Origin: a virus
Direction: 5' to 3' (one strand)
Virus record (IMG/VR): IMGVR_UViG_3300042691_026427
Span: 1-64,000 of that record
Length of the DNA stretch: 64,000 nt
The notes under the pieces were generated by a model. It was not told the origin of the DNA and did not search any database. It saw nothing but the letters and a program-made list of their open reading frames with translations. Position 1 is the stretch's first letter, and each line of letters begins with the position of its first letter. Made by a program: the position numbers and the translations under genes. This document shows positions 122 through 38,139 of the stretch, in pieces.

Positions 122-196
122 TGGTACCGGATGCGAGATTCGAACTTGCGACCAACGCCTTATCAAGGCGCTGCTCTACCACTGAGCTAACCCGGT
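122..196 (-). tRNA. tRNA-Ile(GAT)
   Basis: cloverleaf, loop TT-GAT-AA, GTTCGAATC T-loop, CCA. Confidence 0.95.
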
Positions 197-205
197 ATTC
201 AATCT

Positions 206-280
206 TGGCGCCCACATATGGAATCGAACCACAATCCCCGGTTTCGTAGACCAGTGTATTATCCATTATACTATGCGGGC
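206..280 (-). tRNA. tRNA-Arg(ACG)
   Basis: cloverleaf, CT-ACG-AA, CCA. Confidence 0.95.
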
Positions 281-287
281 AAAATCT

Positions 288-362
288 TGGTGGAAGCCGA
301 GGGAATCGAACCCTTCTAGTCAGCAACCTTGCAAGGGTTACCCGTAGCCCACTACTGCTCCC
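288..362 (-). tRNA. atypical tRNA-Ala(TGC) with minimal D arm
   Basis: CT-TGC-AA loop, G3:U70, T-loop, CCA; D arm only GUAG-UGGG-CUAC. Confidence 0.75.
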
Positions 363-470
363 AATTAAGAAACACACTACATCCAGCGAACCCATCTGCT
401 GGCTTAGTTATTAATCGCTACAGGATAACCGGAATCCTTCGCTGAGGCGTCAGTAATGTGTTTGTTAATT
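363..470 (-). ncRNA. unannotated structured RNA in the tRNA array
   Basis: ends pair over ~18 nt (AAUUAACAAACACAUUAC / GUAGUGUGUUUCUUAAUU); internal CCAGC/GCUGG hairpin. Confidence 0.55.
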
Positions 471-548
471 GGCTCCGTGTGTGAGGATCGAACTCACCTA
501 ATCACTGATTAACAGTCAGGTCCTTGCACCATGCTTGGATTTCACGGA
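470..548 (-). tRNA. tRNA-Asn(GTT)
   Basis: CT-GTT-AA, T-loop, CCA. Confidence 0.9.
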
Positions 549-557
549 ATAGAAAAT

Positions 558-633
558 TGGCGCCACAGACGGGAATCGAACCCGCCTAAATCGGATAGAC
601 AATCCGGTGCCCTACCCAGAGGACTACTGTGGC
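558..633 (-). tRNA. tRNA-Asp(GTC)
   Basis: TT-GTC-TA loop, T-loop, CCA. Confidence 0.9.
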
Positions 634-641
634 ATTAAACT

Positions 642-717
642 TGGCGCCCCGTAGGGGTTTCGATCCCCTTACCTCAGCAGTGACAGTGCTGTGCTCTCCC
701 GATTGAGCTAACGGAGC
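642..717 (-). tRNA. tRNA-Asp(GTC)
   Basis: CT-GTC-AC, CCA. Confidence 0.92.
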
Positions 718-721
718 ATGA

Positions 722-775
722 ATTACGAGCTTGTAGACTAAACTACAATTTACCGGTTTCTAGACGAACTCATAA
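722..775 (-). ncRNA. small structured RNA in the tRNA array
   Basis: closing stem UUAUGAGU/GCUCGUAA; inner UUGUAG/CUACAA hairpin. Confidence 0.45.
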
Positions 776-778
776 ACT

Positions 779-865
779 TGGTGGAGACAACTGGAGTCGA
801 ACCAGTAGTGCCTTTCGGGCGGAAGATTTACAGTCTCCTGGGGTTACCAATTTTCCTACATCTCC
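779..865 (-). tRNA. tRNA-Tyr(GTA)
   Basis: CT-GTA-AA, long variable arm, CCA. Confidence 0.95.
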
Positions 866-867
866 AA

Positions 868-948
868 ATGAAACATGCTAAAAGGGATCTAGTCCACCAT
901 TGGCACTAAGTGCAGGGGGCAGGCTAAAAGGGATCTAACACATTTCAT
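868..948 (-). ncRNA. rod-like RNA with a symmetric internal loop
   Basis: 15-nt direct repeat GCTAAAAGGGATCTA (877-891, 923-937) inside a ~13-bp closing stem. Confidence 0.6.
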
Positions 949-953
949 AAACT

Positions 954-1028
954 TGGTACTCCGAACGGGTATCGATCCCGCTTCTCCAACTTGAAAGGCT
1001 GGTGTCCTAGCCACTAGACGACCGGAGT
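954..1028 (-). tRNA. tRNA-Glu(TTC)
   Basis: CT-TTC-AA, CCA. Confidence 0.93.
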
Positions 1029-1032
1029 AAAA

Positions 1033-1144
1033 TTCTTATACAACTGCACACTCACAGGAGTCGAACCTGCCTACCCAGGACTTGCCCGAGCTGTAATCCG
1101 CTACATTAGCGTGGCCTACGCCTTTATGTGCATGTGTATAAGAA
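1033..1144 (-). ncRNA. tRNA-like RNA with a T arm and extended closing stem, no CCA
   Basis: GCAGG-UUCGACU-CCUGU T arm; UUCUUAUACA/UGUAUAAGAA and UGCACAU/GUGUGCA stems. Confidence 0.6.
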
Positions 1145-1160
1145 CTTCTTATACAATAAA

Positions 1161-1190
1161 TTTTTAAAGAACAGTGTTAATTTCTTAACA
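1161..1190 (-). promoter_or_regulatory. rrn-like boxB-boxA antitermination signal
   Basis: UGUUAA-GAAA-UUAACA hairpin followed by UGUUCUUUAAAAA just downstream of a promoter. Confidence 0.7.
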
Positions 1191-1197
1191 TGTGTAT

Positions 1198-1226
1198 ATT
1201 GTAACATGGTTTTGCCACTTTGTCAA
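1198..1226 (-). promoter_or_regulatory. internal sigma70 promoter of the tRNA array
   Basis: TTGACA-17 nt-TACAAT. Confidence 0.85.
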
Positions 1227-1268
1227 TAGTCTTTGCAACTATTTTTTGTTGTATTTTTACAACAATTT

Positions 1269-1353
1269 TGGTGCCTTTGACTGGACTCGAACCAGCACGC
1301 CTTTCGGCACAGCGACCTCAACGCTGCGTGTCTACCAATTCCACCACAAAGGC
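1269..1353 (-). tRNA. tRNA-Leu(GAG)
   Basis: TT-GAG-GT, long variable arm, CCA. Confidence 0.95.
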
Positions 1354-1363
1354 TTTTTATATT

Positions 1364-1440
1364 TGGTACCCCGTGTCTGATTCGAACAGACAACCAACTC
1401 CTTTTGAGAGAATCCGCACTACCAATTAGCGTAACGGGGC
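1364..1440 (-). tRNA. tRNA-Leu(CAA), short variable loop
   Basis: CT-CAA-AA, 5-nt variable loop, A73, CCA. Confidence 0.85.
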
Positions 1441-1449
1441 ATTTAATTT

Positions 1450-1527
1450 TGGTGCGGTGAACGGGATTCGAACCCGTACTGTACAGATTTTAAGTCTGTT
1501 GCCTCCTACCTATTGCGCTACCACCGC
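1450..1527 (-). tRNA. tRNA-Leu(TAA), short variable loop
   Basis: CT-TAA-AA, 5-nt variable loop, A73, CCA. Confidence 0.88.
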
Positions 1528-1536
1528 GATGTAAAA

Positions 1537-1650
1537 CAGGATACCTTTTTCGATGGCGTGTAAGCCATTGCTCTACCATTGAGCGATCTACGCAAAAGCG
1601 TGGAGTTGGAATCGAACCAACGTGTCGTTAGACATTGCTGTATGTATCCT
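1537..1650 (-). ncRNA. YrlA-like circularly permuted tRNA mimic (CAGCA-motif RNA A)
   Basis: AGGAUAC/GUAUCCU closing stem + CAGCA; T arm, loop-closed acceptor stem, D arm, anticodon-like arm in permuted order. Confidence 0.8.
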
Positions 1651-1658
1651 AAAACTTG

Positions 1659-1734
1659 TGGTGCCATAGACTGGACTCGAACCAGTAACACACGAATTTT
1701 CAGTCCGCTGCTCTACCATTGGAGCTACTATGAC
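1659..1734 (-). tRNA. tRNA-Phe(GAA)
   Basis: CT-GAA-AA, CCA. Confidence 0.95.
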
Positions 1735-1745
1735 ATAAACTTATT

Positions 1746-1819
1746 AGGGGTGACTATCGGGATTTGAACCCGAACTACCAGAGTCACAGTCTAGGTTGCT
1801 ACCATTACAACATAGCCAC
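1746..1819 (-). tRNA. tRNA-His(GTG)
   Basis: CT-GTG-AC, G-1; 3' end CCT (CCA not fully encoded); flanks pair (ACTTATTAGG/CCTAATAAGT). Confidence 0.9.
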
Positions 1820-1837
1820 ACCTAATAAGTCTAAAAT

Positions 1838-1911
1838 TGGCAGGGGTAGTAGGGATCGAACCTACACTCTCAGAGTCAAAGTCTGATATGCTACCATTAC
1901 ATAATACCCCA
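1838..1911 (-). tRNA. tRNA-Gln(TTG)
   Basis: CT-TTG-AC, U1:A72, CCA. Confidence 0.95.
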
Positions 1912-1920
1912 ACAAAATAA

Positions 1921-1976
1921 CAGGATGCTTATTTTTCAATTAAAAGTTGAATTTTAAAAATTGCTGAACGCATCCT
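1921..1976 (-). ncRNA. CAGCA-motif RNA B carrying a Lys(UUU) anticodon stem-loop
   Basis: AGGAUGC/GCAUCCU-G stem, GUU-CAGCAA, inner UUCAA-CUUUUAA-UUGAA. Confidence 0.75.
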
Positions 1977-1981
1977 AAAAC

Positions 1982-2057
1982 TGGTACATCGTGTAGGGAT
2001 TGAACCTACGACCTACGCCGTGTAAAGACGCCGCTACTACCGCTGAGCTAACGATGC
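1982..2057 (-). tRNA. tRNA-Val(TAC)
   Basis: TT-TAC-AC, CCA. Confidence 0.95.
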
Positions 2058-2063
2058 ATAAAT

Positions 2064-2139
2064 TGGTCTCCGTACTAGGATTCGAACCTAGACCTTACCG
2101 CCCCAAACGGCAAGTGCAACCTGATAACACTTTACAGAG
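2064..2139 (-). tRNA. tRNA-Pro(TGG)
   Basis: TT-TGG-GG, C1:G72, CCA. Confidence 0.93.
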
Positions 2140-2146
2140 ATGAAAT

Positions 2147-2220
2147 TGGCGTACCTCCAAGGACTCGAACCTTGACTGACGGTTTTGGAGACCGCGATGC
2201 TGCCATTACACTAGAGATAC
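2147..2220 (-). tRNA. tRNA-Trp(CCA)
   Basis: CT-CCA-AA, CCA end. Confidence 0.95.
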
Positions 2221-2229
2221 ATTATTAAA

Positions 2230-2283
2230 CAGGCTTCGCTTTTTTTCATTTACAGTGAAATTTAAATTTGCTGAAAGAAGCCT
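2230..2283 (-). ncRNA. CAGCA-motif RNA C carrying a Tyr(GUA) anticodon stem-loop
   Basis: AGGCUUC/GAAGCCU-G stem, UUU-CAGCAA, inner UUUCA-CUGUAAA-UGAAA. Confidence 0.75.
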
Positions 2284-2289
2284 AAAACT

Positions 2290-2375
2290 TGGAGGATAGA
2301 ATCAGAATCGAACTGATACCCATTTCTGAGTAGATCGGTTTAGCAAACCAACTTGTGCCCAGCACACTACTATCC
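2290..2375 (-). tRNA. tRNA-Ser(GCT), atypical D arm
   Basis: TT-GCT-AA, long variable arm, CCA; compact D region. Confidence 0.8.
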
Positions 2376-2382
2376 ATAAAAT

Positions 2383-2456
2383 TGGTGCCCCATGACAGAA
2401 TCGAACTGCCGTAACCTGATTACAAAACAGGTGTAATACCATTATACTAATAGGGC
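2383..2456 (-). tRNA. tRNA-Thr(TGT)
   Basis: TT-TGT-AA, CCA. Confidence 0.95.
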
Positions 2457-2461
2457 AAAAT

Positions 2462-2536
2462 TGGCTCCTCAGACTGGGATCGAACCAATGACCGATCGGT
2501 TAACAGCCGATTGCTCTACCGCTGAGCTACTGAGGA
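2462..2536 (-). tRNA. tRNA-Asn(GTT)
   Basis: CT-GTT-AA, canonical arms, CCA. Confidence 0.96.
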
Positions 2537-2544
2537 ATAAAACT

Positions 2545-2622
2545 TGGAGTAGCGGGTGAGATTTGAACTCACGGTTTTACGGATTTGCAATCCATTGCAT
2601 TGGGCCTCTCTGCCACCGCTAC
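2545..2622 (-). tRNA. tRNA-Cys(GCA)
   Basis: TT-GCA-AA, U73, CCA. Confidence 0.95.
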
Positions 2623-2631
2623 ATAAAAACT

Positions 2632-2705
2632 TGGTAGCCAGTCCACGAATTGAACGTGAAATTTCCGCTTATCAGGCGAATGTTATTCCATTTAACTAAC
2701 CGGCC
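2632..2705 (-). tRNA. tRNA-Ile(GAT)
   Basis: CT-GAT-AA, CCA. Confidence 0.9.
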
Positions 2706-2714
2706 AGTTATTTC

Positions 2715-3116
2715 TTACCACTCTGCGTATTCACTTATCATACGAGAGTTTGTATCTTGTCTTTTAGTAGATTCTACACAACGAAGTTTAACTTCTTTCA
2801 CATCACATATTGCTGTAATAGGAATAAGATATACTTTATCTAATTCGTTTACATAAACTGCTAAACAATCAATGTTACTTTCGTTGTAAGAAACTCTATT
2901 AGTGAATGTGTTTTGCGATAGTTTGATTGTAACTACACCGTTACTTTCCAACGATCTAAACTTAACTTGAACTCTTAAAAGTGTCCCATCATGTTTATCT
3001 AACACATAATCATAAGGACAACCTTGAGGCATCTTGCCAGTCCAGTACCCTCGTTTAGCAGAAGCAAGCACAAATGCTGCTTCTCCTATTTCACCTTTTT
3101 CATTTGATATACTCAT
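2715..3116 (-). CDS. free-standing PD-(D/E)XK homing-type endonuclease (I-Ssp6803I/PDDEXK_5-like)
   Basis: KGEIGE...PYDYV...RVQVK motif; AGGAG SD before the ATG at 3116. Confidence 0.8.
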   Translation of the reverse strand: MSISNEKGEIGEAAFVLASAKRGYWTGKMPQGCPYDYVLDKHDGTLLRVQVKFRSLESNGVVTIKLSQNTFTNRVSYNESNIDCLAVYVNELDKVYLIPITAICDVKEVKLRCVESTKRQDTNSRMISEYAEW

Positions 3117-3172
3117 AGTGTTTCTCCTATGAGTAGTTATAACACTCGCCAGGAAAGCGGGCGATAATAAAA

Positions 3173-3237
3173 CAGGATACTTTGTGTCGCTAGACAACCA
3201 AAAAGTTTAGCTAATTTGAATTTGCAGAACGTATCCT
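3173..3237 (-). ncRNA. CAGCA-motif RNA D (CUGCA variant)
   Basis: AGGAUAC/GUAUCCU-G stem, GUU-CUGCAA. Confidence 0.65.
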
Positions 3238-3244
3238 AAAACTA

Positions 3245-3319
3245 TGGTGGACCGTCGGGGGATCGAACCCCGACCTGAGACGTGCAAAGCCCCCGTGCTC
3301 CCATTATCACTAACAGCCC
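3245..3319 (-). tRNA. tRNA-Ala(TGC)
   Basis: TT-TGC-AC, G3:U70, CCA. Confidence 0.95.
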
Positions 3320-3324
3320 ATAAT

Positions 3325-3411
3325 TGGTGGAGTGTGATGGAATCGAACCACTTGGCGCCACCCTACTTGTTAGGCCTACCGGGTTACAGCCGGCAATAGG
3401 GAACACACTCC
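3325..3411 (-). tRNA. D-armless tRNA-Tyr(GTA)-like RNA
   Basis: acceptor GGAGUGU/ACACUCC-A-CCA, CU-GUA-AC loop, T loop; no D hairpin. Confidence 0.7.
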
Positions 3412-3417
3412 AATTTG

Positions 3418-4347: not shown

Positions 4348-5145
4348 ATGAAAAATCAAAACTTTGTTACTATCGGATCGTTCGGCGATACATTATACAG
4401 TCTATGTGTTGCAAAAATTTTAGGTGGGGGCAACATGTATGTCAAATTGGGAGGCATGGACGAACTGGTCAGAACACTGTTCGGAAGAGAACCAGAGGGA
4501 TTTCACAAGGGCCGTTACAATCAACAAGACTACGATCTTATTGCTCCGCTGCTCAAAGCTCAAGACTATCTATCAGATGTTGCTATTTGGACCGGGCAAG
4601 AAAATCATTTCGAATCGTTAAATGACCATTGGAAATTTCACTTACCCCGAGGTTGGCAAGGTAACCAAACAGAATGTTACGCATTAACACAAGGTATGGA
4701 CATATATGAGCCTGTATTGAGTAAAAAACTATTGCTAGAGCCTTGGCTTACCCCAGTAAAACCTGTTAAAATAAAAGATAAGCCCATTGTAATCAACAGA
4801 ACACCTCGCTATCTTTATGGCTGCGATGGTGCTCAGTGGACTACATGGGTAGGCCAAGGTCTAGAAGACTATGCTGTTTTTGTAGGAACAGAACAAGAAC
4901 ATAGTGATTTTCAGAAGCAATTTAACGTCAAAGTAGAGTATAAGCCAGTTAACGATCTGTTAGAGATGGCTCAAATTATACAAGGATGTGAACAGTTTAT
5001 GGGTAATCAAAGTGTTGCGTTGTCTATTGCTATAGGGTTAGGGAAAACATTTTGGTGCGAAACAAGAAAAGATTTTCACCTAACTAAAACTCCGCATGGT
5101 TGGGGGGACGTTTGGTTCCCAAGAGTTAACGGCCACTATTTTTAA
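4348..5145 (+). CDS. glycosyltransferase, GT9/heptosyltransferase-like
   Basis: GSFGD N-terminal motif; LLEMAQIIQGCEQFMGNQS. Confidence 0.6.
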   Translation: MKNQNFVTIGSFGDTLYSLCVAKILGGGNMYVKLGGMDELVRTLFGREPEGFHKGRYNQQDYDLIAPLLKAQDYLSDVAIWTGQENHFESLNDHWKFHLPRGWQGNQTECYALTQGMDIYEPVLSKKLLLEPWLTPVKPVKIKDKPIVINRTPRYLYGCDGAQWTTWVGQGLEDYAVFVGTEQEHSDFQKQFNVKVEYKPVNDLLEMAQIIQGCEQFMGNQSVALSIAIGLGKTFWCETRKDFHLTKTPHGWGDVWFPRVNGHYF

Positions 5146-5153
5146 GGAATGAT

Positions 5154-5798
5154 ATGCACGCTATAATAAGCCACCACAATGACACATACCAGCCGTTGGC
5201 TGATTATACATGGACCGGAAACAAAATTCCCTATGCCGAAAAGCACGGGTATCAATGTCGAATGGAAGAACTAACATCGTTAGGGCACGGTGCCCAACTT
5301 CATAAAGTTGATTTTATCAATAGAATGTTGCACGATCCTCAAAACTACGACTGGATATGGTGGACTGGTTGTGATTTAATGGTTACTAACTTCAATACCA
5401 AAATTGAAGAAAAGATTGATAACCAGTATCACATGATTATCGCCACTGACTGCAACGGATTTAATGCAGACAGTATATTGATTCGAAATAGTCAAGAAAG
5501 TAAAGATTATTGGAAAATGGTTTCTGAAGTATTGCCGGGCTTACATTGGCATTGGGAAGGCGAGCAAAAGATTATCAAAGACACATATCCTAATTACAAA
5601 GACATTATCAAAGTTGTTCCACAGCGAGATATCAATGCTTATGATTATTCCACTTACGGTGGTGCATACCCTTCAATTGATTATCTAAACACTGACGGCA
5701 ATTGGCAGCATGGCGATTGGGCTATACAATGGCCGGGACTGGGATTAGAACTAAGATTGCAATTGGCCGAACTGTATTCACAAAAGGTTGTCAAATAA
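5154..5798 (+). CDS. glycosyltransferase, GT34 (GMA12/MNN10)-like
   Basis: YAEKHGY, DWIWWxxxD, FNADSILIRNS, EQ motifs. Confidence 0.7.
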   Translation: MHAIISHHNDTYQPLADYTWTGNKIPYAEKHGYQCRMEELTSLGHGAQLHKVDFINRMLHDPQNYDWIWWTGCDLMVTNFNTKIEEKIDNQYHMIIATDCNGFNADSILIRNSQESKDYWKMVSEVLPGLHWHWEGEQKIIKDTYPNYKDIIKVVPQRDINAYDYSTYGGAYPSIDYLNTDGNWQHGDWAIQWPGLGLELRLQLAELYSQKVVK

Positions 5799-7117
5799 TG
5801 GAACATATTTTAAAACAGATTCGCGAATACATTGACGAAAAGAATTCTAAAAAATCGTGGACTGCTGGTAAGGACTTTGTTAACTATGCAGGTCCACATT
5901 TTAATGCAGATGAAATTGTCAGTGCTACTGAAACCTTACTAAATGGATGGCTAGTAATGGGCGACAAATGTCTTAAGTTTGAAAAAGAATTTCCTAAGCA
6001 GTTTGGAAAAAACTTTGGAATACTTACAAACAGTGGTAGCTCCAGTAACTTGTTAATGATGGCAGCTTTGACCAGCAAGCGTGGACATCATTTGCCCAAA
6101 GGTACAAAAGTATTAATGCCTATTGCGGGATTTCCTACTACACTGAATCCTACACTTCAAGTAGGTTTTGAACCGGTATTTGTTGATATCGAAATTGATT
6201 CACTTAATCTAAATCTCGATCAAGTAGAACAAGTGCTAAACTCTGATCCAGATATTCGTGTTATTACATTTGCACATGTATTAGGTAATCCACCTAATAT
6301 GGATCAATTAATGGCATTAGTTCGCAAACACAATTTAATCTTGTTAGAAGATTGCTGTGATGCATTAGGCAGTACCTATGCAGGTATTCCTTTGGGCAAG
6401 TTTGGAGAAATGGCATCATGCAGTTTTTATCCAGCACATCATATGACCATGGGAGAAGGTGGCTTTGTTGCCTGCAGAGATTATCAGCAAGAAGTAATTT
6501 TAAGATCATTTAGAGAATGGGGCCGTGGTTGTTATTGTGTGGGTCCAGAAGCCAATAAACTCAAGTGCGGTAGTTGCGGTAATCGATTTAAAGAATGGAT
6601 TCCGGAAATGCCAGGAGAAATTTTTGACCACAAATATGTTTACGACGAAATTGGGTATAATTTAAAACCGATTGAAGTGCAGGGCGCCATGGGTCTACAT
6701 CAACTAGAAAAGTTAGACGAGATCCACAGTCTAAGAAAACGAAACTACCACTTGTTGTTTAGCATATATAAGAAATACGAAGAGTTCTTTCATCTTCCCC
6801 GACCTACTGCTAAATCAGATCCTAGTTGGTTTGCTTTTCCGTTGACTATCCGTGAAGGTGCACCTTTTAAGCGTAGCGACATTGTTGATTATTTAGAAGA
6901 AAATTTAATTCAGACTCGTCCGTACTTTGCCGGTAACATCATGTTGCAGCCTGCATACAGCCATTTGATGAATCCTGCTGATGCCCGTGATAACTTTCCT
7001 GTTGCTACTCATGTGATGCGCAACACGTTCTTTCATGGTACTAGTCCAGTTATTACTCCAGAACAAATTGCTTACATTGGAGAAAAGGTTGACGGTTTTA
7101 TGAGTTTATTTGTTTAA
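5798..7117 (+). CDS. rfbH: CDP-4-keto-6-deoxyglucose 3-dehydratase (DegT family, RfbH/DdhC type)
   Basis: SFYPAHHMTMGEGG (His replaces the PLP Lys), WGRGCYC..C cluster, FDHKY; start coupled as TAATG. Confidence 0.88.
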   Translation: MEHILKQIREYIDEKNSKKSWTAGKDFVNYAGPHFNADEIVSATETLLNGWLVMGDKCLKFEKEFPKQFGKNFGILTNSGSSSNLLMMAALTSKRGHHLPKGTKVLMPIAGFPTTLNPTLQVGFEPVFVDIEIDSLNLNLDQVEQVLNSDPDIRVITFAHVLGNPPNMDQLMALVRKHNLILLEDCCDALGSTYAGIPLGKFGEMASCSFYPAHHMTMGEGGFVACRDYQQEVILRSFREWGRGCYCVGPEANKLKCGSCGNRFKEWIPEMPGEIFDHKYVYDEIGYNLKPIEVQGAMGLHQLEKLDEIHSLRKRNYHLLFSIYKKYEEFFHLPRPTAKSDPSWFAFPLTIREGAPFKRSDIVDYLEENLIQTRPYFAGNIMLQPAYSHLMNPADARDNFPVATHVMRNTFFHGTSPVITPEQIAYIGEKVDGFMSLFV

Positions 7118-7125
7118 GGAAAAAT

Positions 7126-7668
7126 ATGAAAAAAGCATTAATTATTACCCACAGCGGATTTCAAGACCACGAATTAGTTTATCCATACTATCGATTGTTA
7201 GGAGAAGGATTCGAGACACATATAGTTGCAGACAAAAAAGACGCACTAGGAAGATGCTACGGTATCTTTGGATTAAACATGCCTTGTCATATTTTGCTAG
7301 ATGATTTTGTAAACAATCTAGACAGATATCAAGATGAGTATGATGTTGTTGTTCTACCTGGTGGTGTAAAAGCTCTTGAAAAGTTGCGTTTGATCAAACC
7401 GGTACTGTCGTTTATTCACCAATGGAATCAGAACGGTAAAGTTATTATCAGTACCTGCCACGGGGCTCAGCTATTGATCAGTGCAAAAATTGTCAAAGGT
7501 CGTAAGATCAGTGGCTATTATAGTTTAGAAGATGACATTAACAATGCTGGCGCAACTTATGTCAATGCTCCGTATGTGATCGACGACAATATTATTTCTA
7601 GTCCGCATTACGATCATATGGGAGTGTGGATGGAAGAAGCAATTAAACTATACAATGCACGAACATAA
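7126..7668 (+). CDS. DJ-1/PfpI family protein
   Basis: GFQDHE, LPGG, CHGAQLL. Confidence 0.85.
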   Translation: MKKALIITHSGFQDHELVYPYYRLLGEGFETHIVADKKDALGRCYGIFGLNMPCHILLDDFVNNLDRYQDEYDVVVLPGGVKALEKLRLIKPVLSFIHQWNQNGKVIISTCHGAQLLISAKIVKGRKISGYYSLEDDINNAGATYVNAPYVIDDNIISSPHYDHMGVWMEEAIKLYNART

Positions 7669-8323
7669 CATCATAAGAAAACCCTGGGGCTATGAATACA
7701 TAGCCTATCAGAATGACAGCGTAGCACTCAAGGTGTTGCATATCAGTGCAGGCGAGAGAACTAGTCTACACTGTCATCCTAACAAAAGCACAGGATTAGT
7801 ATTATTAGCAGGCACTGCGGAAATTAATTTTATTGCAGATAGCAAACAGTTAACCGCTCCGGCAAAACAAATGATTCGACGGGGCTTATTCCATCAAACT
7901 CATGCAGTAAGCGACAACGGCATAATTATGTTTGAAATAGAAACTCCTGTAGATAAGGATGACCTTGTTAGATTACGTGACAACTACGGACGTAAGGATC
8001 AAGGATACGAGGACAATCAATTTGAACTGCCTAAAGATAGCGAATGTCTTTGGATTAACGATCCAGTTCTCGGAACTTCAGATTTTTATAAAATAGGTAC
8101 ATGTGATGTTGAAATTACTTGTGCCACTGATACATCAATTTTTGAAAACAGAAATTCTAATGACATTGTTATGTTTTTAAAAGGTGGTCTAATTAAAGAA
8201 GTTAACAATCGACCACACTTGGTAACACAACCTGGTGATGTAGGGCAAGTAAAAGTAGTAAAGCAGGTATCTCAAGAAATGGATTGTTTTGCTCCAGACA
8301 CTATAATAGCATTTATCAAATGA
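7655..8323 (+). CDS. cupin (mannose-6-phosphate isomerase-like) protein
   Basis: KPWG, TSLHCH, EIETP..DDLVRLRDNYGR. Confidence 0.75.
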   Translation: MHEHNIIRKPWGYEYIAYQNDSVALKVLHISAGERTSLHCHPNKSTGLVLLAGTAEINFIADSKQLTAPAKQMIRRGLFHQTHAVSDNGIIMFEIETPVDKDDLVRLRDNYGRKDQGYEDNQFELPKDSECLWINDPVLGTSDFYKIGTCDVEITCATDTSIFENRNSNDIVMFLKGGLIKEVNNRPHLVTQPGDVGQVKVVKQVSQEMDCFAPDTIIAFIK

Positions 8324-8721
8324 AAAACCATTTTCCTCCCGGATTTGCCGATGACGCTAACAATCTAAGTATCGACTTCGACGGTGTAATTCACAGTCAT
8401 CATTTAGGATTTCATGATGGCACTATATACGGTTATCCTATAGAAGGCAGTCTAGAAGCGGTTCGAGAACTTAGCAAATATTATCGCATAGTAATTTTCA
8501 CAGCAAAAGCCAAGTCTGATCGACCATTGGTAAATGGCAAGACTGGTACCGAGTTAGTATGGGAATGGTTGGCAAAGTACGGCATTTCCGATTGCGTAGC
8601 AGAAGTTACATCAGAAAAACCTCGTAGTTTTTTGTACATTGACGACAACGGCTACCGATTTGAAAATTGGGAAAATACACTAAACTACGTTAAGAGCAAT
8701 TATGAAGATAAAAGTAAGTGA
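8320..8721 (+). CDS. HAD-superfamily phosphatase
   Basis: IDFDGVIH, KP..YIDD. Confidence 0.75.
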   Translation: MKNHFPPGFADDANNLSIDFDGVIHSHHLGFHDGTIYGYPIEGSLEAVRELSKYYRIVIFTAKAKSDRPLVNGKTGTELVWEWLAKYGISDCVAEVTSEKPRSFLYIDDNGYRFENWENTLNYVKSNYEDKSK

Positions 8722-10483
8722 TTATATAATCAAATTATTAGAACAAAAGGGCGTTGATACAGCGTTTTGTATCACAGGCGGAGCAGCAGCGCATTTAATC
8801 GAAAGTCTTCGTATCAGCGATATGCAAGTTTTTCACAACTATAACGAACAAGCCTGCGCTATGAGTGCTGATGGGTATGCTCGTATTGCCAAAAAGCCAG
8901 CACTAGTCATGGTCACTAACGGACCAGGTAGTAGTAATGCTATTACCGGAGTATTAGGTGCGTGGCAAGACAGTGTTCCGATGATTGTGTTGAGCGGTCA
9001 AGTGCCGAGGCATCAAACACTTGCAGCCGAAGTTAGATCATTACGTCAATTAGGATTACAAGAAGCTGATATTATCAGCATGGTCAAACATTGTACCAAT
9101 CATGCTGTTCAGATAACACAGACAAGTAACATCAAACAAGAAATAGACAAAGCCTGGCACTTGGCAACTAGCGGTCGTATGGGGCCCGTTTGGTTAGACA
9201 TTCCTATCGATATTCAAGCAGAAATAATCGAAACTGATGACCAGTTAGAATATGTAATAGAAGCTGTTGATACTCGTGTTCACTCCATCGAAGGTATTGT
9301 TACTGCAATAAAGAATTCTAAGAAACCTTTGATAGTTGCAGGTAACGGTATTCATTTAGGCAATGCTGAAAATGAATTTTTACAATTAGTAAATCAATTA
9401 CAAATTCCAGTTGTAGCAACATGGAATGCCAAAGATCTTTTTAATTCAGATGACGACTTGTATGTTGGTAATTTCGGATTGCTAGGTGAAAGAGCTGCTA
9501 ACTTTGCTATTCAACAAGCAGATTTGTTAATTGTACTGGGCAGTAGATTAAGTATTCCTGTAACTGGATATAACACAAAAGACTTTTCTCCTAACTCTAA
9601 GAAGATCATGGTTGACTTAGATGAAAATGAAATACTTAAACATACATTAACTATCGATTATCCTTATGTTGGACATGTAAAAGATTTTATTAATGATATA
9701 AAAGACATTATCGAACCATCAAAGAGGCAGCTTTGGAATAATACCGTTAAAGGATGGAAAGAAAGATTTCCAGTGTTTAGTGAAAATCATGTTCGTGCCG
9801 ATGGTTTCGTTAACAGCTTTGATTTTATGCAGCATTTAAGTAATGCCATGCGACCAGATGATGTAGTAGTAACTGACATGGGAACTAGTTTTACTTGCAC
9901 TATGCAATCTTTGCAGCATACAGGCAAAGACAGACTGTTTACCAGTAGTGCTTTGTGCAGTATGGGATTTGGTTTGCCCGGAGCAATCGGCGCATATACT
10001 GCTAACGCTAATAATCGTGTAATTTGTATTGCAGGAGACGGTGGATTCCAAATGAACATTCAAGAGCTGCAAACTGTAGCTCAATACAATTTACCAATTA
10101 AAATTATTATCTTAAACAACGACGGATATCTAGCAATCAGTCTAATGCAGGATAATTTGTTTAATGGAAATCATTTTGGTGCAACTAGTGCTAGTGGTGT
10201 AGGAAGTCCTAAGTTTGTTGAATTGAGCAAAGCATATGGAATTCCTGCATATAAATTAAAAACTATCACAGATGTTAAAAATAATTTGGCTTTCTTGTTA
10301 AGTGAGTCAGGACCTTGTTTAATTGAAATTAACATGGTAAGAAACCAATTGTTAATTCCTCGTGTTCAAAGTAAACGAGATGCTTCTGGAAAGATTGTCA
10401 GCGGAAGCATAGATGCTATGTTTCCATTTTTAACAGATAAAGAAATAGACCAAGTATTAACTGAAAGCCGTAGTTGTGAATAA
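8702..10483 (+). CDS. TPP-dependent acetolactate-synthase-like enzyme (YerE-like)
   Basis: EQAC..ADGYAR, TNGPG, GDGGFQMNIQEL..NN; located in an NDP-sugar operon. Confidence 0.85.
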   Translation: MKIKVSDYIIKLLEQKGVDTAFCITGGAAAHLIESLRISDMQVFHNYNEQACAMSADGYARIAKKPALVMVTNGPGSSNAITGVLGAWQDSVPMIVLSGQVPRHQTLAAEVRSLRQLGLQEADIISMVKHCTNHAVQITQTSNIKQEIDKAWHLATSGRMGPVWLDIPIDIQAEIIETDDQLEYVIEAVDTRVHSIEGIVTAIKNSKKPLIVAGNGIHLGNAENEFLQLVNQLQIPVVATWNAKDLFNSDDDLYVGNFGLLGERAANFAIQQADLLIVLGSRLSIPVTGYNTKDFSPNSKKIMVDLDENEILKHTLTIDYPYVGHVKDFINDIKDIIEPSKRQLWNNTVKGWKERFPVFSENHVRADGFVNSFDFMQHLSNAMRPDDVVVTDMGTSFTCTMQSLQHTGKDRLFTSSALCSMGFGLPGAIGAYTANANNRVICIAGDGGFQMNIQELQTVAQYNLPIKIIILNNDGYLAISLMQDNLFNGNHFGATSASGVGSPKFVELSKAYGIPAYKLKTITDVKNNLAFLLSESGPCLIEINMVRNQLLIPRVQSKRDASGKIVSGSIDAMFPFLTDKEIDQVLTESRSCE

Positions 10484-11297
10484 AATTGCAGTATTAGGCG
10501 CTAACGGATATATTGGTCGATATCTTGTTGAAAATTTAACTACTGATGGTTACGAAGTATTGCCTGTAACTAGGTCCGAGTTGACATTAACTAATACTCA
10601 GCAGGTTAAGAATTGGTTAGAAAAATACAGACCATATGCAATAATCAACTGTGCGTCTTCTGTGTCAATTACAGGCGTTCGAGAACACAATGTAAACTTT
10701 GATGATCTGCAAAATAATATCAATATTTTTCTTAATTTTTATTATCACAGTGATTTGTTTTCAAAATTTATCAACATCGGAACCGGTGCTGAGTTTGATA
10801 AAACAAGAAGTATTACAGAAATAACAGAAACCGAACTTACAAAATCATTTCCTACTGAAACTTATGGATACAGTAAAAATTTAATTTCAAGATTTGTTTT
10901 AGAAAAAGAAAAATTTTACACACTAAGACTATTTGGATGTTTTGATAAATCAGAACCCACTGCTCGACTGTTTCAACAATTGCAAATCAAAGATCAAGTT
11001 ACTATTGAAGATAAACAATTTGATTATATTAGTGCTCGAGATTTCTATAAGGTATTAAATCATTACTTAAATAATAATGTAGAACACAAAGATATCAATT
11101 GTGTATATTCAAAAAAGTATATGCTTAGTGAAATTGCAAATATGTTTAAAGAATATCACAACTTACCAGTAGACATTGTTATATCGGGTATTGGTAAAAA
11201 TTACTCAGCATGTGGAAAGAAACTATCGCAATTGGCAATAGCATTAGATGGATTAGAAAAATCCATCAAGAGTTATAACGCTAATAGTTTGATTTAA
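10476..11297 (+). CDS. NAD-dependent epimerase/dehydratase
   Basis: GANGYIG, YGYSK. Confidence 0.85.
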   Translation: MNKIAVLGANGYIGRYLVENLTTDGYEVLPVTRSELTLTNTQQVKNWLEKYRPYAIINCASSVSITGVREHNVNFDDLQNNINIFLNFYYHSDLFSKFINIGTGAEFDKTRSITEITETELTKSFPTETYGYSKNLISRFVLEKEKFYTLRLFGCFDKSEPTARLFQQLQIKDQVTIEDKQFDYISARDFYKVLNHYLNNNVEHKDINCVYSKKYMLSEIANMFKEYHNLPVDIVISGIGKNYSACGKKLSQLAIALDGLEKSIKSYNANSLI

Positions 11298-11311
11298 AAA
11301 TTAAGAATAAT

Positions 11312-12250
11312 ATGAAAAAAATTGTATATGTAACTGGATGTCTAGGATTTATCGGATATCATGTAACCAAAGCCTGTTTAGACAAAGGTTGGTATGTTCG
11401 TGGAATTGACAAAGGCACCTATGCTGCCAATTGGAATCTACTTCCCACACTGGAAAAGTATAATAATTTTACATTCGAACATGTAGACATTAACGACTTA
11501 GATAGAATATACGATTGTGATTATTTTATCAACACCGCGGCCGAAACTCACGTTGACAACAGTTTAGAAGAAAGCGACTGTTTTGTCCATAGCAATATAA
11601 ATGGAGTTCATCATATTCTCAAATTGATCAATCAAAGAAAATATCGTAAACCTGTATTGTTGCAATTTAGTACTGATGAAGTATATGGAGATATCGAGCA
11701 GGGCAGTCACACTGAAGAAGATAGATTAGCTCCTAGTAATCCTTATAGTGCTACCAAAGCAGCAGCTGATATGTTGATACTAGCTTGGGGCCGCAGTCAT
11801 AATCTTCCCTATATAATTGTGCGTCCCACAAACAACTACGGCATTGGCCAATATGTTGAAAAACTTATCCCTAAAACTTGTAAGTTTCTAACTATTGGAA
11901 AAAAGATCGACTTACATAACAACGGTACTCCTGTGCGTACTTGGTTACATGCTAGCGATACTGCTCGTGCAGTGCTAACAATTATAGAATCAGGAGCGGT
12001 AAATGAAGTCTACAATATAAGTGGGCCTTATCAGACTGAAAATATCAATGTTGTTACTAAGATTCTTAAATTATGTGGCATAAAAGGAGATCCTTTTGAT
12101 CACATTGCACAGGCTTCTCGACAAGGGCAGGATGTTCGATACTCAATCGATGATTCAAAGTTAAGAAGTTTAGGTTGGACTCCTGTTGCAGACTTTGATA
12201 AAGAACTAAGCAAAATTGTAAAATATTATAAGAACAATTTTGTATGGTGA
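11312..12250 (+). CDS. rfbB: NDP-glucose 4,6-dehydratase
   Basis: GCLGFIG, AAETHVD, STDEVYG, PYSATK, NNYG. Confidence 0.88.
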   Translation: MKKIVYVTGCLGFIGYHVTKACLDKGWYVRGIDKGTYAANWNLLPTLEKYNNFTFEHVDINDLDRIYDCDYFINTAAETHVDNSLEESDCFVHSNINGVHHILKLINQRKYRKPVLLQFSTDEVYGDIEQGSHTEEDRLAPSNPYSATKAAADMLILAWGRSHNLPYIIVRPTNNYGIGQYVEKLIPKTCKFLTIGKKIDLHNNGTPVRTWLHASDTARAVLTIIESGAVNEVYNISGPYQTENINVVTKILKLCGIKGDPFDHIAQASRQGQDVRYSIDDSKLRSLGWTPVADFDKELSKIVKYYKNNFVW

Positions 12251-15093: not shown

Positions 15094-17157
15094 TTACTTC
15101 GACGTTGCTCGGTATGTGCCGTCCCAGTCTGCAGGAAGATATCTAGTACGCATTTCAGCAATACGCTCTTGCCATAGTGTATAGTAGTCGTCCATCTTAC
15201 CGTCAAACTCGCCTATAAGTTCTTGGCACAGTGTAATGGCCTTGTCCCACTGCTGTTCACGATAGTACTGCAACATCAGTTCATGATGCTCACGGGCACT
15301 GATCCAATCTGCTGCTACTGTAACATCTGGATTGTAGAACACTGTGAAGATGTTAACACCGATGGTCTTACCTTTAACAGCAATGCAGTCTAACGGAATT
15401 GTAAAGTAGTTGTCACCTACACGAGCTTGTGTAAACTCACTAATGATAATTAACACACCGTAGTTCTTGGTCTGACCTTCTAAACGTGCTGTCAAACTAA
15501 CGCTGTCACCTAAGACGTCATAGCCAAAACGGTCCTTACTACCAATGTTACCAATCAGTGTAGGACCTGTGTTGATACCCAATCCGCAACCTACTAATGG
15601 CTTGCCTTCTTTGGTAAGTTCAATGTTAAACAGTTCAACAGCATGTAACATTTCTAAGCCTGTACGAACAGCAGCCAGCACATGATCTGGGTCTTGTTCT
15701 TCTTGAATAGGAGCACCATGAACGTGTAGTGACGCATCACCAATGAACTTGATCAAGCATCCGTTGTTGCGTAAGATAGGTTCGGCAATAGCAGTCATGT
15801 ATCGATTCATAGTGTGTGTAAATGCCACAACGTCATCGCCATAAGTCTCACCTAAGCCAGTGAAGTTACGCATGTCGCTCATGATAACTGTTAGATCTTT
15901 CTTTTCGCCGCCCAGTTTAATAAAACTTGGATCTTTCTGTAAGCGTTCTACGATAATAGGATTAACATAACCGCCAAATTGTTTCTTGATCTGTTGCTTC
16001 TGTAAGAACTCACTTACAAACTTGATGCCATAGGCATGCAAAGCGACCAAAGTTGTGCCAACTGCAAAGGCAGTAGCATCGAATAAGAATAGAAGATTAC
16101 TGTAAGCAAGAATACTGCCAGCAATACCCCCACCGACCAATACAACCACTGCGGCAAGTCCAACATATGTCCACCTTGTTAAAAATAGTAATAATAAACC
16201 TGCTAATAGAATAGCCACAGTTTCTAAATCATCTGCGTAGCCAGGACGTTGAATAGTAGTGCCTGACATCATTGTGCCTAGCAAACTGGCCTGCATGTCC
16301 TGGGGCCAAATTTCACCAAGACTAGTAGCTACTGGTTGCACTAAGCCTGCTGCACTCAATCCCACAATAACAACCTCACCATTAAAGTCTTTGGGCAATT
16401 TGGCAAGACTATGCTGCTTGGGCTGCTGACTCCAATCAATCCATACACGACTCAAAGGGTCCACATTGATACGGTTCAGTTTAGGTATTCGCACTGCTTC
16501 AACGCCTGCGTCAGTAATTTTAACCTGTATCTTTGTATCCCCTGCTGCCATTCTAAGTGTTTCTAAACCAATAGCAGGATGCACAGTTCCACTGCTTAGT
16601 ATTAACAACGGCATACGACGAACAACACCATCTATTTCAGGAAAGGTATTTACAATACCCGTGCCCGCCGCACGTTCTTCTAACATAGGGACGTTGGCGA
16701 TAATGCCTGGATATTCTACTAGACTACCGTTAGGATCAGCTCCTACAATTTGCACAGCAGATCCAAATGTTTTATTTTTGTCGGTAGTACTGGCAACTTG
16801 CGGCAGTACCACTGGATATTTTTCTAATGCTTGGGCCAGTTTATTATCTTGACCAAACCTATCTGCTTCAGGCATGAGGATGTTGAACACAACAAGTCCA
16901 GCATTTCTATTATATAAATCTTTAATAATGTCGGCATATAGTCCTCGAGGAAAAGGGAATTGTCCATATTTGTCTAGTGCTGCTTCGTCAATATTAACTG
17001 TGTGTACAGGAATATCTTTTGCAGGTTGGCTTGTGACCAGTTGATCAAAGTAGCGTAGTCTTACGCTTTCTACAAATGCAGGATCTGCAAATCTAATACC
17101 TACAATTAATACTAGCGTTACTAATGCTGTCCAAGGACTTAATAATATTTTTTTCAT
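15094..17157 (-). CDS. CHASE2-domain class III adenylate/guanylate cyclase
   Basis: IDEAALDKYGQFPFPR, DGVVRR, TM helices, SDMRNFT, KFIGDA, GDSVSLTARLEG. Confidence 0.92.
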   Translation of the reverse strand: MKKILLSPWTALVTLVLIVGIRFADPAFVESVRLRYFDQLVTSQPAKDIPVHTVNIDEAALDKYGQFPFPRGLYADIIKDLYNRNAGLVVFNILMPEADRFGQDNKLAQALEKYPVVLPQVASTTDKNKTFGSAVQIVGADPNGSLVEYPGIIANVPMLEERAAGTGIVNTFPEIDGVVRRMPLLILSSGTVHPAIGLETLRMAAGDTKIQVKITDAGVEAVRIPKLNRINVDPLSRVWIDWSQQPKQHSLAKLPKDFNGEVVIVGLSAAGLVQPVATSLGEIWPQDMQASLLGTMMSGTTIQRPGYADDLETVAILLAGLLLLFLTRWTYVGLAAVVVLVGGGIAGSILAYSNLLFLFDATAFAVGTTLVALHAYGIKFVSEFLQKQQIKKQFGGYVNPIIVERLQKDPSFIKLGGEKKDLTVIMSDMRNFTGLGETYGDDVVAFTHTMNRYMTAIAEPILRNNGCLIKFIGDASLHVHGAPIQEEQDPDHVLAAVRTGLEMLHAVELFNIELTKEGKPLVGCGLGINTGPTLIGNIGSKDRFGYDVLGDSVSLTARLEGQTKNYGVLIIISEFTQARVGDNYFTIPLDCIAVKGKTIGVNIFTVFYNPDVTVAADWISAREHHELMLQYYREQQWDKAITLCQELIGEFDGKMDDYYTLWQERIAEMRTRYLPADWDGTYRATSK

Positions 17158-17444
17158 TCTTCGCAATTCCAACGACTTAATGCTTTGGCTTTTGGAGTAG
17201 GGCGGCCTTTCTCATCCTTCATAGGACCTTTGTTACCTGACATCCTAGCACAGAAACTCTTGCGGCGTTTAGCATCCTTGCTACCTGCTTTGAGTTTACT
17301 AGGCTTAGTAGTAACAGCAGTCTTTAATTTACTGCCTGGATTCTCACGACGATAAGCATTAACTGCTTTTTGACTTAGGCCGTCAGTCTTGTCTTTTCTA
17401 TTGACTTTATTCCAGTCTTCATTAATAAATTCGTGTGCTCTCAT
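17154..17444 (-). CDS. basic phage protein with CTS-like N-terminus
   Basis: MRAHEFINE; RRKSFCARM. Confidence 0.7.
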   Translation of the reverse strand: MRAHEFINEDWNKVNRKDKTDGLSQKAVNAYRRENPGSKLKTAVTTKPSKLKAGSKDAKRRKSFCARMSGNKGPMKDEKGRPTPKAKALSRWNCEE

Positions 17445-35280: not shown

Positions 35281-35321
35281 CAGGTTACTTTTAAATTAAA
35301 AAATTATGCTGTATATAACCT
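35281..35321 (-). promoter_or_regulatory. CAGCA-motif element E1 abutting the DUF2828 SD
   Basis: AGGUUAU-AUA-CAGCA...GUAACCU-G directly followed by AAGGAAAAUAAAAUG. Confidence 0.75.
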
Positions 35322-35327
35322 ATACAA

Positions 35328-35564
35328 CAGGATGGGTGGAACCGTAATATTTTTTCTGGCCAACTTTCCCCAGTATATCGGTTCAGTTCCTTGGCCCTAT
35401 CCTAACTTGTGTCTGCGTTAGAAAACATATATGTCTTTCCATAAGTCGTCAGTTCCATTAGTGTTATAGTTTATACATTTCTGTATTCCTACTACAGCCT
35501 TTCCACGGGCCACTGTCTACTGCATTTACGGCTTTAGTATTGTTTAAATTGCTGAATCCATCCT
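35328..35564 (-). ncRNA. CAGCA-motif RNA E2 (~240 nt)
   Basis: AGGAUGG-AUU-CAGCAA...CCAUCCU-G; inner GCCGUAA/UUACGGU helix. Confidence 0.75.
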
Positions 35565-35573
35565 AGGATTTAA

Positions 35574-35737
35574 CAGGTTAGTTGTTGACTGCTTTTATTT
35601 TACTCAGGCCATCACTCTGAGCTTGTTGGTCTATTTCAATAGCTACCTTCACAGCACTTGGGCGAACCTTTGTGCTCCAGCGGACTACCATAGGGTCCAA
35701 CGATCCATAGTAATATGAATGTTGCTGTACCTAACCT
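35574..35737 (-). ncRNA. CAGCA-motif RNA E3 (~165 nt)
   Basis: AGGUUAG-GUA-CAGCAA...CUAACCU-G; several inner hairpins. Confidence 0.75.
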
Positions 35738-37905: not shown

Positions 37906-38139
37906 TTAAAATAGTTTCTTTGGTAAGCTATCAGCTTCTAATTTTTTAAGCCAGCGAGCTCTTGCAGCTCCCTTTTTACGTTTTTTTTCAGTTGTGGGCT
38001 TTTCGTAGGCAGTTCTTTTAATGATGTCAATCAACTTGTTGCTTTCGTCGACTTTCTTCTTAAATTTACGTAGTGCAGAAACAATATTACCGTCTCGTAC
38101 CTCTACAGTAATGCCCTTTTTATGATAGTTTTTTGTCAT
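37906..38139 (-). CDS. rpsU: ribosomal protein bS21
   Basis: ALRKFKKKV, YEKPT..KRKK..ARAR. Confidence 0.88.
   Translation of the reverse strand: MTKNYHKKGITVEVRDGNIVSALRKFKKKVDESNKLIDIIKRTAYEKPTTEKKRKKGAARARWLKKLEADSLPKKLF

Follow-up and report, generated by a model that had tools for sequence, protein, structure and literature searches.

A circularly permuted tRNA-like RNA in a phage tRNA array, most likely a Y RNA-type partner of a divergent Ro60-like protein

The stretch of DNA analyzed here (the window) was the first 64 kb (64,000 nucleotides, nt) of a 149-kb viral record, IMGVR_UViG_3300042691_026427, with a CheckV completeness of 44%. An RNA element of approximately 115 nt, named E4, was located at window positions 1651..1537 on the minus strand. 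E4 is most likely the tRNA-mimic member of a family of RNAs that share a terminal stem and motif, called the handle, and that partner a divergent Ro60-like protein; it would then be of the Y RNA and YrlA kind. This assignment to a tRNA-mimicking Y RNA variant was made because the same handle marks the RNAs beside the gene of a Ro60-like ring protein. With a probability of roughly two in three, E4 is the gene for a non-coding RNA of two modules, the handle and a tRNA mimic, which works as a Y-RNA-like partner of the Ro60-like ring.

Twenty-two tRNA genes occupied the minus strand of the window at positions 122-3319. E4 was flanked by tRNA-Phe (1659-1734) and tRNA-Leu-UAA (1450-1527) on the same strand as this array. 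When the array was compared by megablast with cultured phages, only tRNA-sized matches were obtained. All helices listed by the initial annotation of this DNA were found at 1651..1537, and one 4-bp hairpin, UGUC-UAAC-GACA, had been missed. The parts of E4 are listed below in 5' to 3' order of the RNA.

1644..1651, minus strand: closing stem of the handle, 5' strand UAGGAUAC, partner of 1537-1544
1635..1643, minus strand: handle motif AUACAGCAA, predicted to be single-stranded, with CAGCAA at 1640..1635
1623..1634, minus strand: small hairpin UGUC-UAAC-GACA (4 bp) at the variable-arm position, then a single C; from the E4 fold and the homolog folds
1605..1621, minus strand: T arm GUUGG-UUCGAUU-CCAAC, matched by the YrlA and tRNA models
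1587..1604, minus strand: acceptor-like 7-bp stem UCCACGC / GCGUAGA with a UUUU loop; 6 of 7 pairs, with a C.A mismatch at the third pair
1570..1584, minus strand: D arm GCUC-AAUGGUA-GAGC, with UC (1586..1585) before it and A after it; from the fold and the YrlA and tRNA model matches
1553..1568, minus strand: anticodon-like arm AUGGC-UUACAC-GCCAU with a 6-nt loop, one nt 3' of the D arm
1545..1552, minus strand: A-rich 3' joining strand CGAAAAAG of the handle; a comparable A-rich run is present in other window and cultured-phage handle RNAs
1537..1544, minus strand: closing stem, 3' strand GUAUCCUG, pairing with 1644..1651, then UUUUA

The results support E4 as a complete tRNA cloverleaf in rotated order, running from the variable-arm-like hairpin through the T arm, the loop-closed acceptor stem, and the D arm to the anticodon-like arm. 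The usual order was restored in silico by placing the D arm and the anticodon-like arm after the 5' acceptor strand, followed by five natural linker bases, the T arm, the 3' acceptor strand, and an added ACCA. ARAGORN called 13 of 14 such rotated RNAs of the E4 type (type 1) as tRNA, compared to none of the 14 in native order. The circular permutation proposed in the initial annotation, in which the T arm precedes a loop-closed acceptor stem and the D arm, was thus confirmed. Owing to its 6-nt loop, the rotated window copy was reported as tRNA-???. The circle is broken between the anticodon-like arm and the variable region, where the extra hairpin resembles the variable arm of a class II tRNA. 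The suggestion that the closing stem is grafted at the variable-loop position therefore holds for the site of the break, but the position of the variable arm is itself occupied by this hairpin.

The nucleotides of the tRNA elbow were present in E4 (U8, A14, the GG of the D loop, the T loop UUCGAUU, and a pyrimidine before the T stem), and the pyrimidine 5' of the T stem was found in 13 of 13 sequences. A three-dimensional D/T elbow is probably formed, and the joints between this module and the handle are single-stranded. E4 departs from tRNA (RF00005) and from permuted tRNA genes in its 6-nt loop, in having no conserved anticodon, and in an acceptor end closed by UUUU. The anticodon-like loops of the type had either 6 nt (UUACAC, UUCCAA, UUCAUC, UUACAA, and UUCACA) or 7 nt (CUUCAUG, UUAAACA, UUAAAAA, UUCAUAC, and CUCAUAA, the last two of which read CAU). 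Since the arm is conserved and no anticodon is, the 'Val-UAC-like' identity given to the window loop was rejected as a coincidence.

The predicted structure of E4 had a minimum free energy of -35.2 kcal/mol with a z-score of -3.9, and none of 200 shuffled sequences folded as well. A DNA pattern derived from E4 gave 28 viral-contig loci; 13 distinct sequences had the same six helices, and each folded in this way independently. In a plain MAFFT alignment, 90.4% of cells were paired, compared to 32-38% with slid partners, and 13 pairs changed on both sides, a level that 0 of 500 shuffles reached. All six helices were kept with compensatory changes in 14 distinct viral-contig homologs. The alignment of these 14 close type 1 RNAs showed 94.3% of cells paired against 32-38% for slid partners and 15 both-side pair changes, again matched by 0 of 500 shuffles. 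A covariance model built on the close sequences yielded 94 matches, 70 of them distinct, in 100 sources. Among the 70 distinct family members, 93.4% of cells were paired compared to at most 43% for slid partners, and 32 of 33 pairs were compensatory, D and T arms included.

The individual helices were analyzed in the 14 homologs and in this wider set. The closing stem was 98% paired in the homologs, with compensatory changes at 3 of 8 pairs, and all 8 pairs covaried in the wider set. In the acceptor-like stem, 6 of 7 pairs were compensatory, and the third pair was C.A in eight homologs, U-A in four, and U.G in two. The anticodon-like arm was 97% paired with 4 of 5 pairs compensatory, which agrees with the initial annotation that this arm, unlike in canonical YrlA, has been kept. 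The small hairpin was the weakest helix (74% paired in the 14 homologs); 12 of 13 homologs formed it when folded independently, in differing sequences (e.g., GUCA-UUUA-UGAC). Among the 70 members, the T arm was 99% paired and 4 of its 5 pairs covaried. The D arm, which was invariant in the close set because the search pattern imposed it, was 99.6% paired in the wider set and covaried there (CG/UA, UA/GC). CAGCAA was demanded by both collection scans, so its constancy in the scan-collected alignment is no evidence. Evidence for the motif comes from RNAs that the scan patterns had not retrieved, namely the six sister RNAs of the window (five with CAGCA and one with CUGCA) and the CAGCAA stems that cluster next to DUF2828 in eight cultured phages.

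The neighbours of the homologs varied, from Phe/Leu in the window to Met and a second handle RNA or Trp/Cys in relatives. The flanking tRNAs thus differ among relatives while the structure is kept, which indicates that the unit moves as a whole.

The handle consists of an AGG-stem, the motif (A)C(A/U)GCA(A), an A-rich strand, and CCUG, and it is common to E4 and six other RNAs in the window. Its stem of 7-8 bp is formed by the paired 5' and 3' ends; the 5' strand continues into single-stranded ACAGCAA, and an A-rich run leads up to the 3' strand. Three of the six other RNAs lie in the tRNA array, and three stand in tandem before a DUF2828/DUF7788 gene. Some of these handle-sharing RNAs carry no tRNA parts at all. 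The handle RNAs and the gene are as follows.

3174..3237, minus strand: handle RNA E1 in the tRNA array, motif CUGCAA
2231..2283, minus strand: handle RNA E2, cargo one stem-loop UUUCA-CUGUAAA-UGAAA; full-length match to the Class I RNA model, 28.6 bits
1922..1976, minus strand: handle RNA E3, cargo one stem-loop UUCAA-CUUUUAA-UUGAA; full-length match to the Class I RNA model, 30.7 bits
35282..35737, minus strand: three tandem handle RNAs (35737..35575, 35564..35329, and 35321..35282), lying after a TTGACA-17-TATAAT promoter and before the DUF2828 start codon
33871..35268, minus strand: DUF2828/DUF7788 gene, 465 amino acids, predicted Ro60-fold ring and von Willebrand factor A (vWA) domain with the MIDAS (metal ion-dependent adhesion site) motif DVSGSM; Pfam PF11443 and PF25043

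Several further features of the sister RNAs were observed. The cargo of E2 and E3 is an anticodon-like stem-loop alone (CUGUAAA and CUUUUAA, respectively), and in related phages (e.g., L007:2536-2655, plus strand) the E2-type loop stands on a longer RNA with a T arm, a closed acceptor stem, and a D arm. Because this loop varies as CUGNAAA in relatives (GUA, GCA, GAA, and GGA), no fixed Tyr anticodon is present. The third upstream handle RNA (35282-35321, minus strand) ends 13 nt before the DUF2828 start codon, directly before an AAGGA ribosome-binding site, and the protein bound to it could regulate its own translation. Extra matches of the handle scan across the record were coding repeats and one DnaA-box region, none of them a family member; the latter, at record (G000) positions 143716-143773 (minus strand) outside the window, is a stem with repeated DnaA-box-like TTATCCACA words.

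The DUF2828/DUF7788 protein is the candidate partner of these RNAs. Its AlphaFold2 model had a predicted local distance difference test (pLDDT) score of 93, and in a Foldseek comparison with the Protein Data Bank (PDB), the top 13 matches were all Ro60/TROVE proteins. VIA-align superposed 403 residues on Xenopus Ro60 (1yvp_A) with a Z score of 21.5 and a root-mean-square deviation of 3.8 A. The scores to phage phiLo Ro60 and Deinococcus Rsr were Z 13.5-16.6 (15.6-16.6 for the phiLo protein), while structural matches restricted to the vWA domain reached Z of about 10. A helical-repeat ring followed by a vWA domain with MIDAS, the arrangement that characterizes the Ro60/TROVE superfamily, was present in the predicted structure, and the MIDAS motif DVSGSM (DxSxS) was invariant in 55 relatives. 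The sequence link was weak. A Pfam scan returned PF11443 and PF25043 only, with no match to the TROVE model; a single-sequence search of the PDB gave nothing meaningful; and a profile search reached E 0.07 to Ro60/TROVE, at the MIDAS motif. Since sequence searches gave at most E 0.07, the link to Ro60 rests on the predicted structure.

The co-occurrence of handle RNAs and DUF2828 was then compared among viral records. PF11443 was found above the cut-off in 15 of 19 larger viral records with tRNA-like handle RNAs, and one more had a weak match; the three RNA-bearing records without DUF2828 are 10-40% complete. By comparison, PF11443 was found in 0 of 20 control viral records, which were fetched by the same loose pattern and lack the RNA. 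TROVE (PF05731) was found in none of the 19 RNA-bearing related viral records, a search that did not include the window's own record. At 12 related viral loci, at least one handle RNA stood beside the DUF2828 gene in 11, and two or three did so in 10.

Cultured phages showed the same arrangement. In a tblastn search, the DUF2828 protein was found in 711 cultured phage records, often annotated as 'RNA-binding protein' or 'Ro-like RNA binding protein'. Eight phages from eight host genera (Felix O1, mycobacteriophage Nicholas, Listeria phage WIL-1, a Staphylococcus phage, Campylobacter phage CPX, Ralstonia phage RSP15, Synechococcus phage B3, and Bacillus phage FADO) were examined by a CAGCAA-seeded scan with shuffle controls. 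All eight carried 2-5 short handle RNAs beside the DUF2828 gene on the same strand, compared to 0.7-1.4 expected per locus. One tRNA-like handle RNA was present in each of Felix O1, Nicholas, RSP15, and FADO; that of Felix O1 lies at NC_005282 24580-24704 (L123:8424-8548). The handle is thus common to RNAs flanking a protein with a predicted Ro60 fold, and because E4 shares it, E4 backs the Y-RNA reading of the motif family that the initial annotation had put forward.

These cultured-phage loci showed additional tRNA-related features. The DUF2828 gene abuts a tRNA array in three unrelated phages, Felix O1 (L123), Campylobacter CPX (L127), and Ralstonia RSP15 (L128). In Listeria phage WIL-1 (L125), a 'tRNA splicing ligase' (RtcB-type) gene lies 1.3 kb downstream of DUF2828. 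In Synechococcus phage B3, both the DUF2828 gene and a small handle RNA are followed closely downstream by a 110-nt 'tRNA-Pseudo-GCA' annotation (L129:4863-4972, plus strand). Its tRNA frame is unpermuted, with normal acceptor, D, and T arms, and the anticodon region is replaced by an insert with CUGCAA and GGAGCC. The GGAGCC of this insert recurs in the permuted RNAs of two other loci, L017 and L019.

Among known systems, E4 was compared with the bacterial YrlA RNAs. YrlA RNAs bind Rsr and mimic tRNA; they contain a T arm, a closed acceptor stem, and a D arm with no anticodon loop (PMC4201824; 10.1101/312249). In these RNAs, the anticodon stem leads into a Ro60-binding stem bearing GNCGAA(N)G, and their genes lie within approximately 4 kb of a TROVE Ro60 ortholog on the same strand (PMC4201824). 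E4 follows the same logic, as a modular RNA whose ends are paired in a stem with a conserved motif on the 5' strand and whose second module runs from the T arm through a loop-closed acceptor stem to the D arm, with the elbow nucleotides and the pyrimidine before the T stem kept. As with YrlA, the genome also encodes a Ro60-fold protein (predicted in the window phage), and one tRNA-like RNA is found among several partner RNAs (putative partners in the window phage).

However, E4 lacks four features of YrlA. The handle motif is ACAGCAA instead of GNCGAA(N)G, and the linker from acceptor to D arm is UC, compared to UA in YrlA. E4 has a self-contained anticodon-like hairpin and a variable-arm-like hairpin on single-stranded joints, whereas the YrlA anticodon stem is formed by two strands leading into the Ro-binding stem without an anticodon loop. 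The candidate partner in the window is DUF2828/DUF7788, while that of YrlA is a Pfam TROVE protein, and the E4 gene stands in a tRNA array 32 kb from the protein gene. In the comparison with the Rfam YrlA model (RF02553), which had been proposed as a check, the model aligned to E4 at full length (1-114) with 29.6 bits (E 1.4e-3 in 3.6 kb), below the gathering score of 69. A related RNA of mycobacteriophage Nicholas reached 37.9 bits, and none of 10 related loci reached the gathering score. The YrlA-like designation therefore stands for the module order, the elbow nucleotides, and the full-length alignment, but not for membership in the family or for its Ro-binding motif.

A second comparison concerns the Thermus phage phiLo, whose Ro60 binds two upstream Y-like RNAs (Yrl1/Yrl2) and can assemble with host PNPase (PMC12135203; PDB 9KOP, 9L5Y). 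In both systems, a phage genome encodes a protein of the Ro60 fold (predicted in the window phage), and Y-like RNAs are encoded immediately upstream of that gene; the phiLo protein was among the best structural matches. In contrast, a large internal bulge of the phiLo RNAs contains a CGAA motif, with no tRNA-like module reported (PMC12135203), and neither the protein family nor the handle is that of the window phage.

The handle also resembles the Class I RNAs of Dictyostelium (RF01414), which have 42-65 nt, start with AAG, end with CUGU, contain an 11-nt motif, carry unstructured or variable cargo, and were reported to be unique to dictyostelids (PMC7919456). The likeness lies in the short terminal stem with CUUACAGCAA next to it, in the A-rich 3' side, and in the ends AAG... 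and ...CUGU. The Rfam consensus GaUcuC-CUUACAGCAA...AAAAA...GagAuC-UG aligned at full length to E3 (30.7 bits) and E2 (28.6 bits), compared to a gathering score of 41.5. The E4 handle AUACAGCAA agrees with the Class I handle sequence and E4 ends in CCUGUU, while E4 itself was not matched by the Class I model. E4 differs in its 115 nt with a tRNA cloverleaf as cargo, and the account of the Class I RNAs in PMC7919456 describes no Ro-like partner for them.

For the phage handle-RNA family, no description was found in Rfam 15 or in the literature searched, only gene annotations. Permuted tRNA genes of Cyanidioschyzon merolae give rise, by way of a circular intermediate, to ordinary tRNAs whose ends and anticodons are normal. 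Like these genes, E4 has the 3' half of its cloverleaf upstream of the 5' half. It differs in an acceptor end closed by 4 nt, the lack of a conserved anticodon, and ends that form a conserved protein-type handle.

Other explanations of E4 were weighed against the Y-RNA reading. E4 may be a decoy that engages a host tRNA-targeting defence nuclease or a tRNA-modifying enzyme through its tRNA shape alone, with the handle serving for processing or stability and no Ro-like binding. Phage tRNA arrays are a known counter to tRNA-cleaving defences, and the place of E4 in such an array, the bare anticodon-like stem-loops of the sister RNAs, and the conserved elbow nucleotides are consistent with this idea. 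It is nevertheless doubtful, as conservation is lowest in the anticodon-like loop, which such nucleases usually target, and the tight co-occurrence and adjacency of handle RNAs and DUF2828 would be left unexplained. It is improbable that E4 is a permuted tRNA gene maturing into a working two-piece tRNA, in which RNase P would cut in the acceptor loop before G+1, the upstream end would be trimmed and receive CCA, and the halves, joined by the acceptor and handle stems, would be charged and used in translation. The window loop has 6 nt and those of homologs 6-7 nt with no conserved anticodon, a C.A mismatch lies in the acceptor stem of 8 of 14 copies, CCA is not encoded, and the handle also occurs on RNAs without any tRNA parts. 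These points stand against the presence of all four arms, the acceptance of the rotated form by ARAGORN, the canonical 7-nt loop with CAU in the relatives L020 and L031, and the 7-bp acceptor stem, the feature that makes the YrlA RNA of M. smegmatis a substrate of RNase P as well as of the CCA-adding enzyme in vivo (PMC4201824).

E4 is very unlikely to be non-functional, either as a decayed gene fusion, in which the 3' half of one tRNA was joined to the 5' half of the following one, or as a spacer or processing signal of a tRNA operon. Among the covariance-model matches are junctions between two neighbouring tRNAs (e.g., L022:577-695 and L009:1121-1237), so that an order of T arm then D arm can arise trivially. 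These low-scoring matches had 27-30 bits, compared to 126 bits for E4. In E4, covariation was seen at 6 of 7 positions of the acceptor strands, which pair across the 4-nt loop, and likewise in the closing stem and the anticodon-like arm; the position in the array shifts among relatives while the structure is kept. The pairing of the acceptor strands with each other largely rules out a decayed fusion. The initial annotation had named such a fusion lacking the closing stem as the counter-case, and it was not seen, as homologs keep a covarying closing stem. Overall, that earlier interpretation was right in kind and partly supported; three of its details were not upheld, namely membership in the YrlA family, the identity of the anticodon, and a tie to PNPase, which was proposed by analogy.

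Several points weigh against E4 as a Y-RNA-like partner of the ring. Many of the 19 co-occurring records are related phages, and their counts are not independent. E4 is not beside the DUF2828 gene, as the distance is 32 kb on the same strand. E4 scores far under the YrlA cut-off, and its handle motif is unlike the known Ro60-binding motif, so ring binding is argued from co-occurrence only. No conserved neighbouring nuclease was found: the Rv2179c-like exoribonuclease next to DUF2828 in the window was dropped as a conserved partner, being tens of kb away in other phages and not syntenic there. Fitting of the covariation alignments to the model biases them toward the structure, and the search patterns had partly set the D and T arms in advance. 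Both the comparison with slid partners and the folds obtained independently from single sequences argue for a real result.

As a Y-RNA-like partner, E4 would be transcribed with the tRNA array and excised by the tRNA-processing machinery. The handle would be the binding site for the phage DUF2828/DUF7788 Ro60-like ring and would hold the RNA on it, so that E4 would act like a bacterial YrlA-type Y RNA. The tRNA-shaped module may recruit or occupy a tRNA-binding factor, such as a processing, modification, or repair enzyme or a nuclease, and this recruitment would tether or gate the ring during infection. YrlA of M. smegmatis, the sole YrlA with a 7-bp acceptor stem, is cleaved by RNase P and has CCA added to it in vivo (PMC4201824). 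The acceptor stem of E4 also has 7 bp, and processing by RNase P with CCA addition is therefore a testable possibility. A bolder version, which we consider unlikely and which is drawn by analogy, holds that an RNase P cut in the acceptor loop and CCA addition would give a complete two-piece tRNA held by the handle on the Ro60-like ring. This tRNA might be charged or might bait nucleases, whereby the phage would sense, repair, or shield tRNAs under host-defence attack, and the Class I RNAs would belong to the same ancient particle. No RtcB or CCA-adding enzyme was found in the 149-kb record (44% complete).

Other features of the window were also recorded. A tRNA-like sequence at 3328-3412 (minus strand) ends in CCA and combines a long extra arm with an acceptor stem of 8 bp (GGAGUGUG/CACACUCC); it scored 29.2 bits with the tRNA-Sec model (cut-off 47) and was not called by ARAGORN. 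A PD-(D/E)XK endonuclease gene (PF11645; 2715-3197, minus strand) lies inside the tRNA array between tRNA-Ile and handle RNA E1. Host-like genes were found at 4348-12250 (plus strand) and at 15094-17172, 28078-29970, and 38120-39358 (minus strand). They comprise a sugar-nucleotide cluster (glycosyltransferase, DegT aminotransferase, thiamine pyrophosphate enzyme, and two epimerases), a CHASE2-adenylate/guanylate cyclase, Hsp70, and a ClpX-like ATPase.

Ro60 and its Y RNAs form a conserved RNA-surveillance particle, and E4 bears on the roles of this particle in bacteria and phages. E4 apparently belongs to an undescribed branch of the Ro60/Y RNA system with a handle of its own. Its tRNA mimic is a full cloverleaf that includes an anticodon-like arm and is fuller than that of the YrlA RNAs described previously (PMC4201824; 10.1101/312249). 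The pairing of such RNAs with DUF2828 in tractable phages (Felix O1, cluster-L-type mycobacteriophages, and Listeria, Staphylococcus, and Campylobacter phages) makes tRNA mimicry by Y RNAs directly testable. Furthermore, the likeness of the handle to that of the Class I RNAs in Dictyostelium points to a possible protein partner for the latter.
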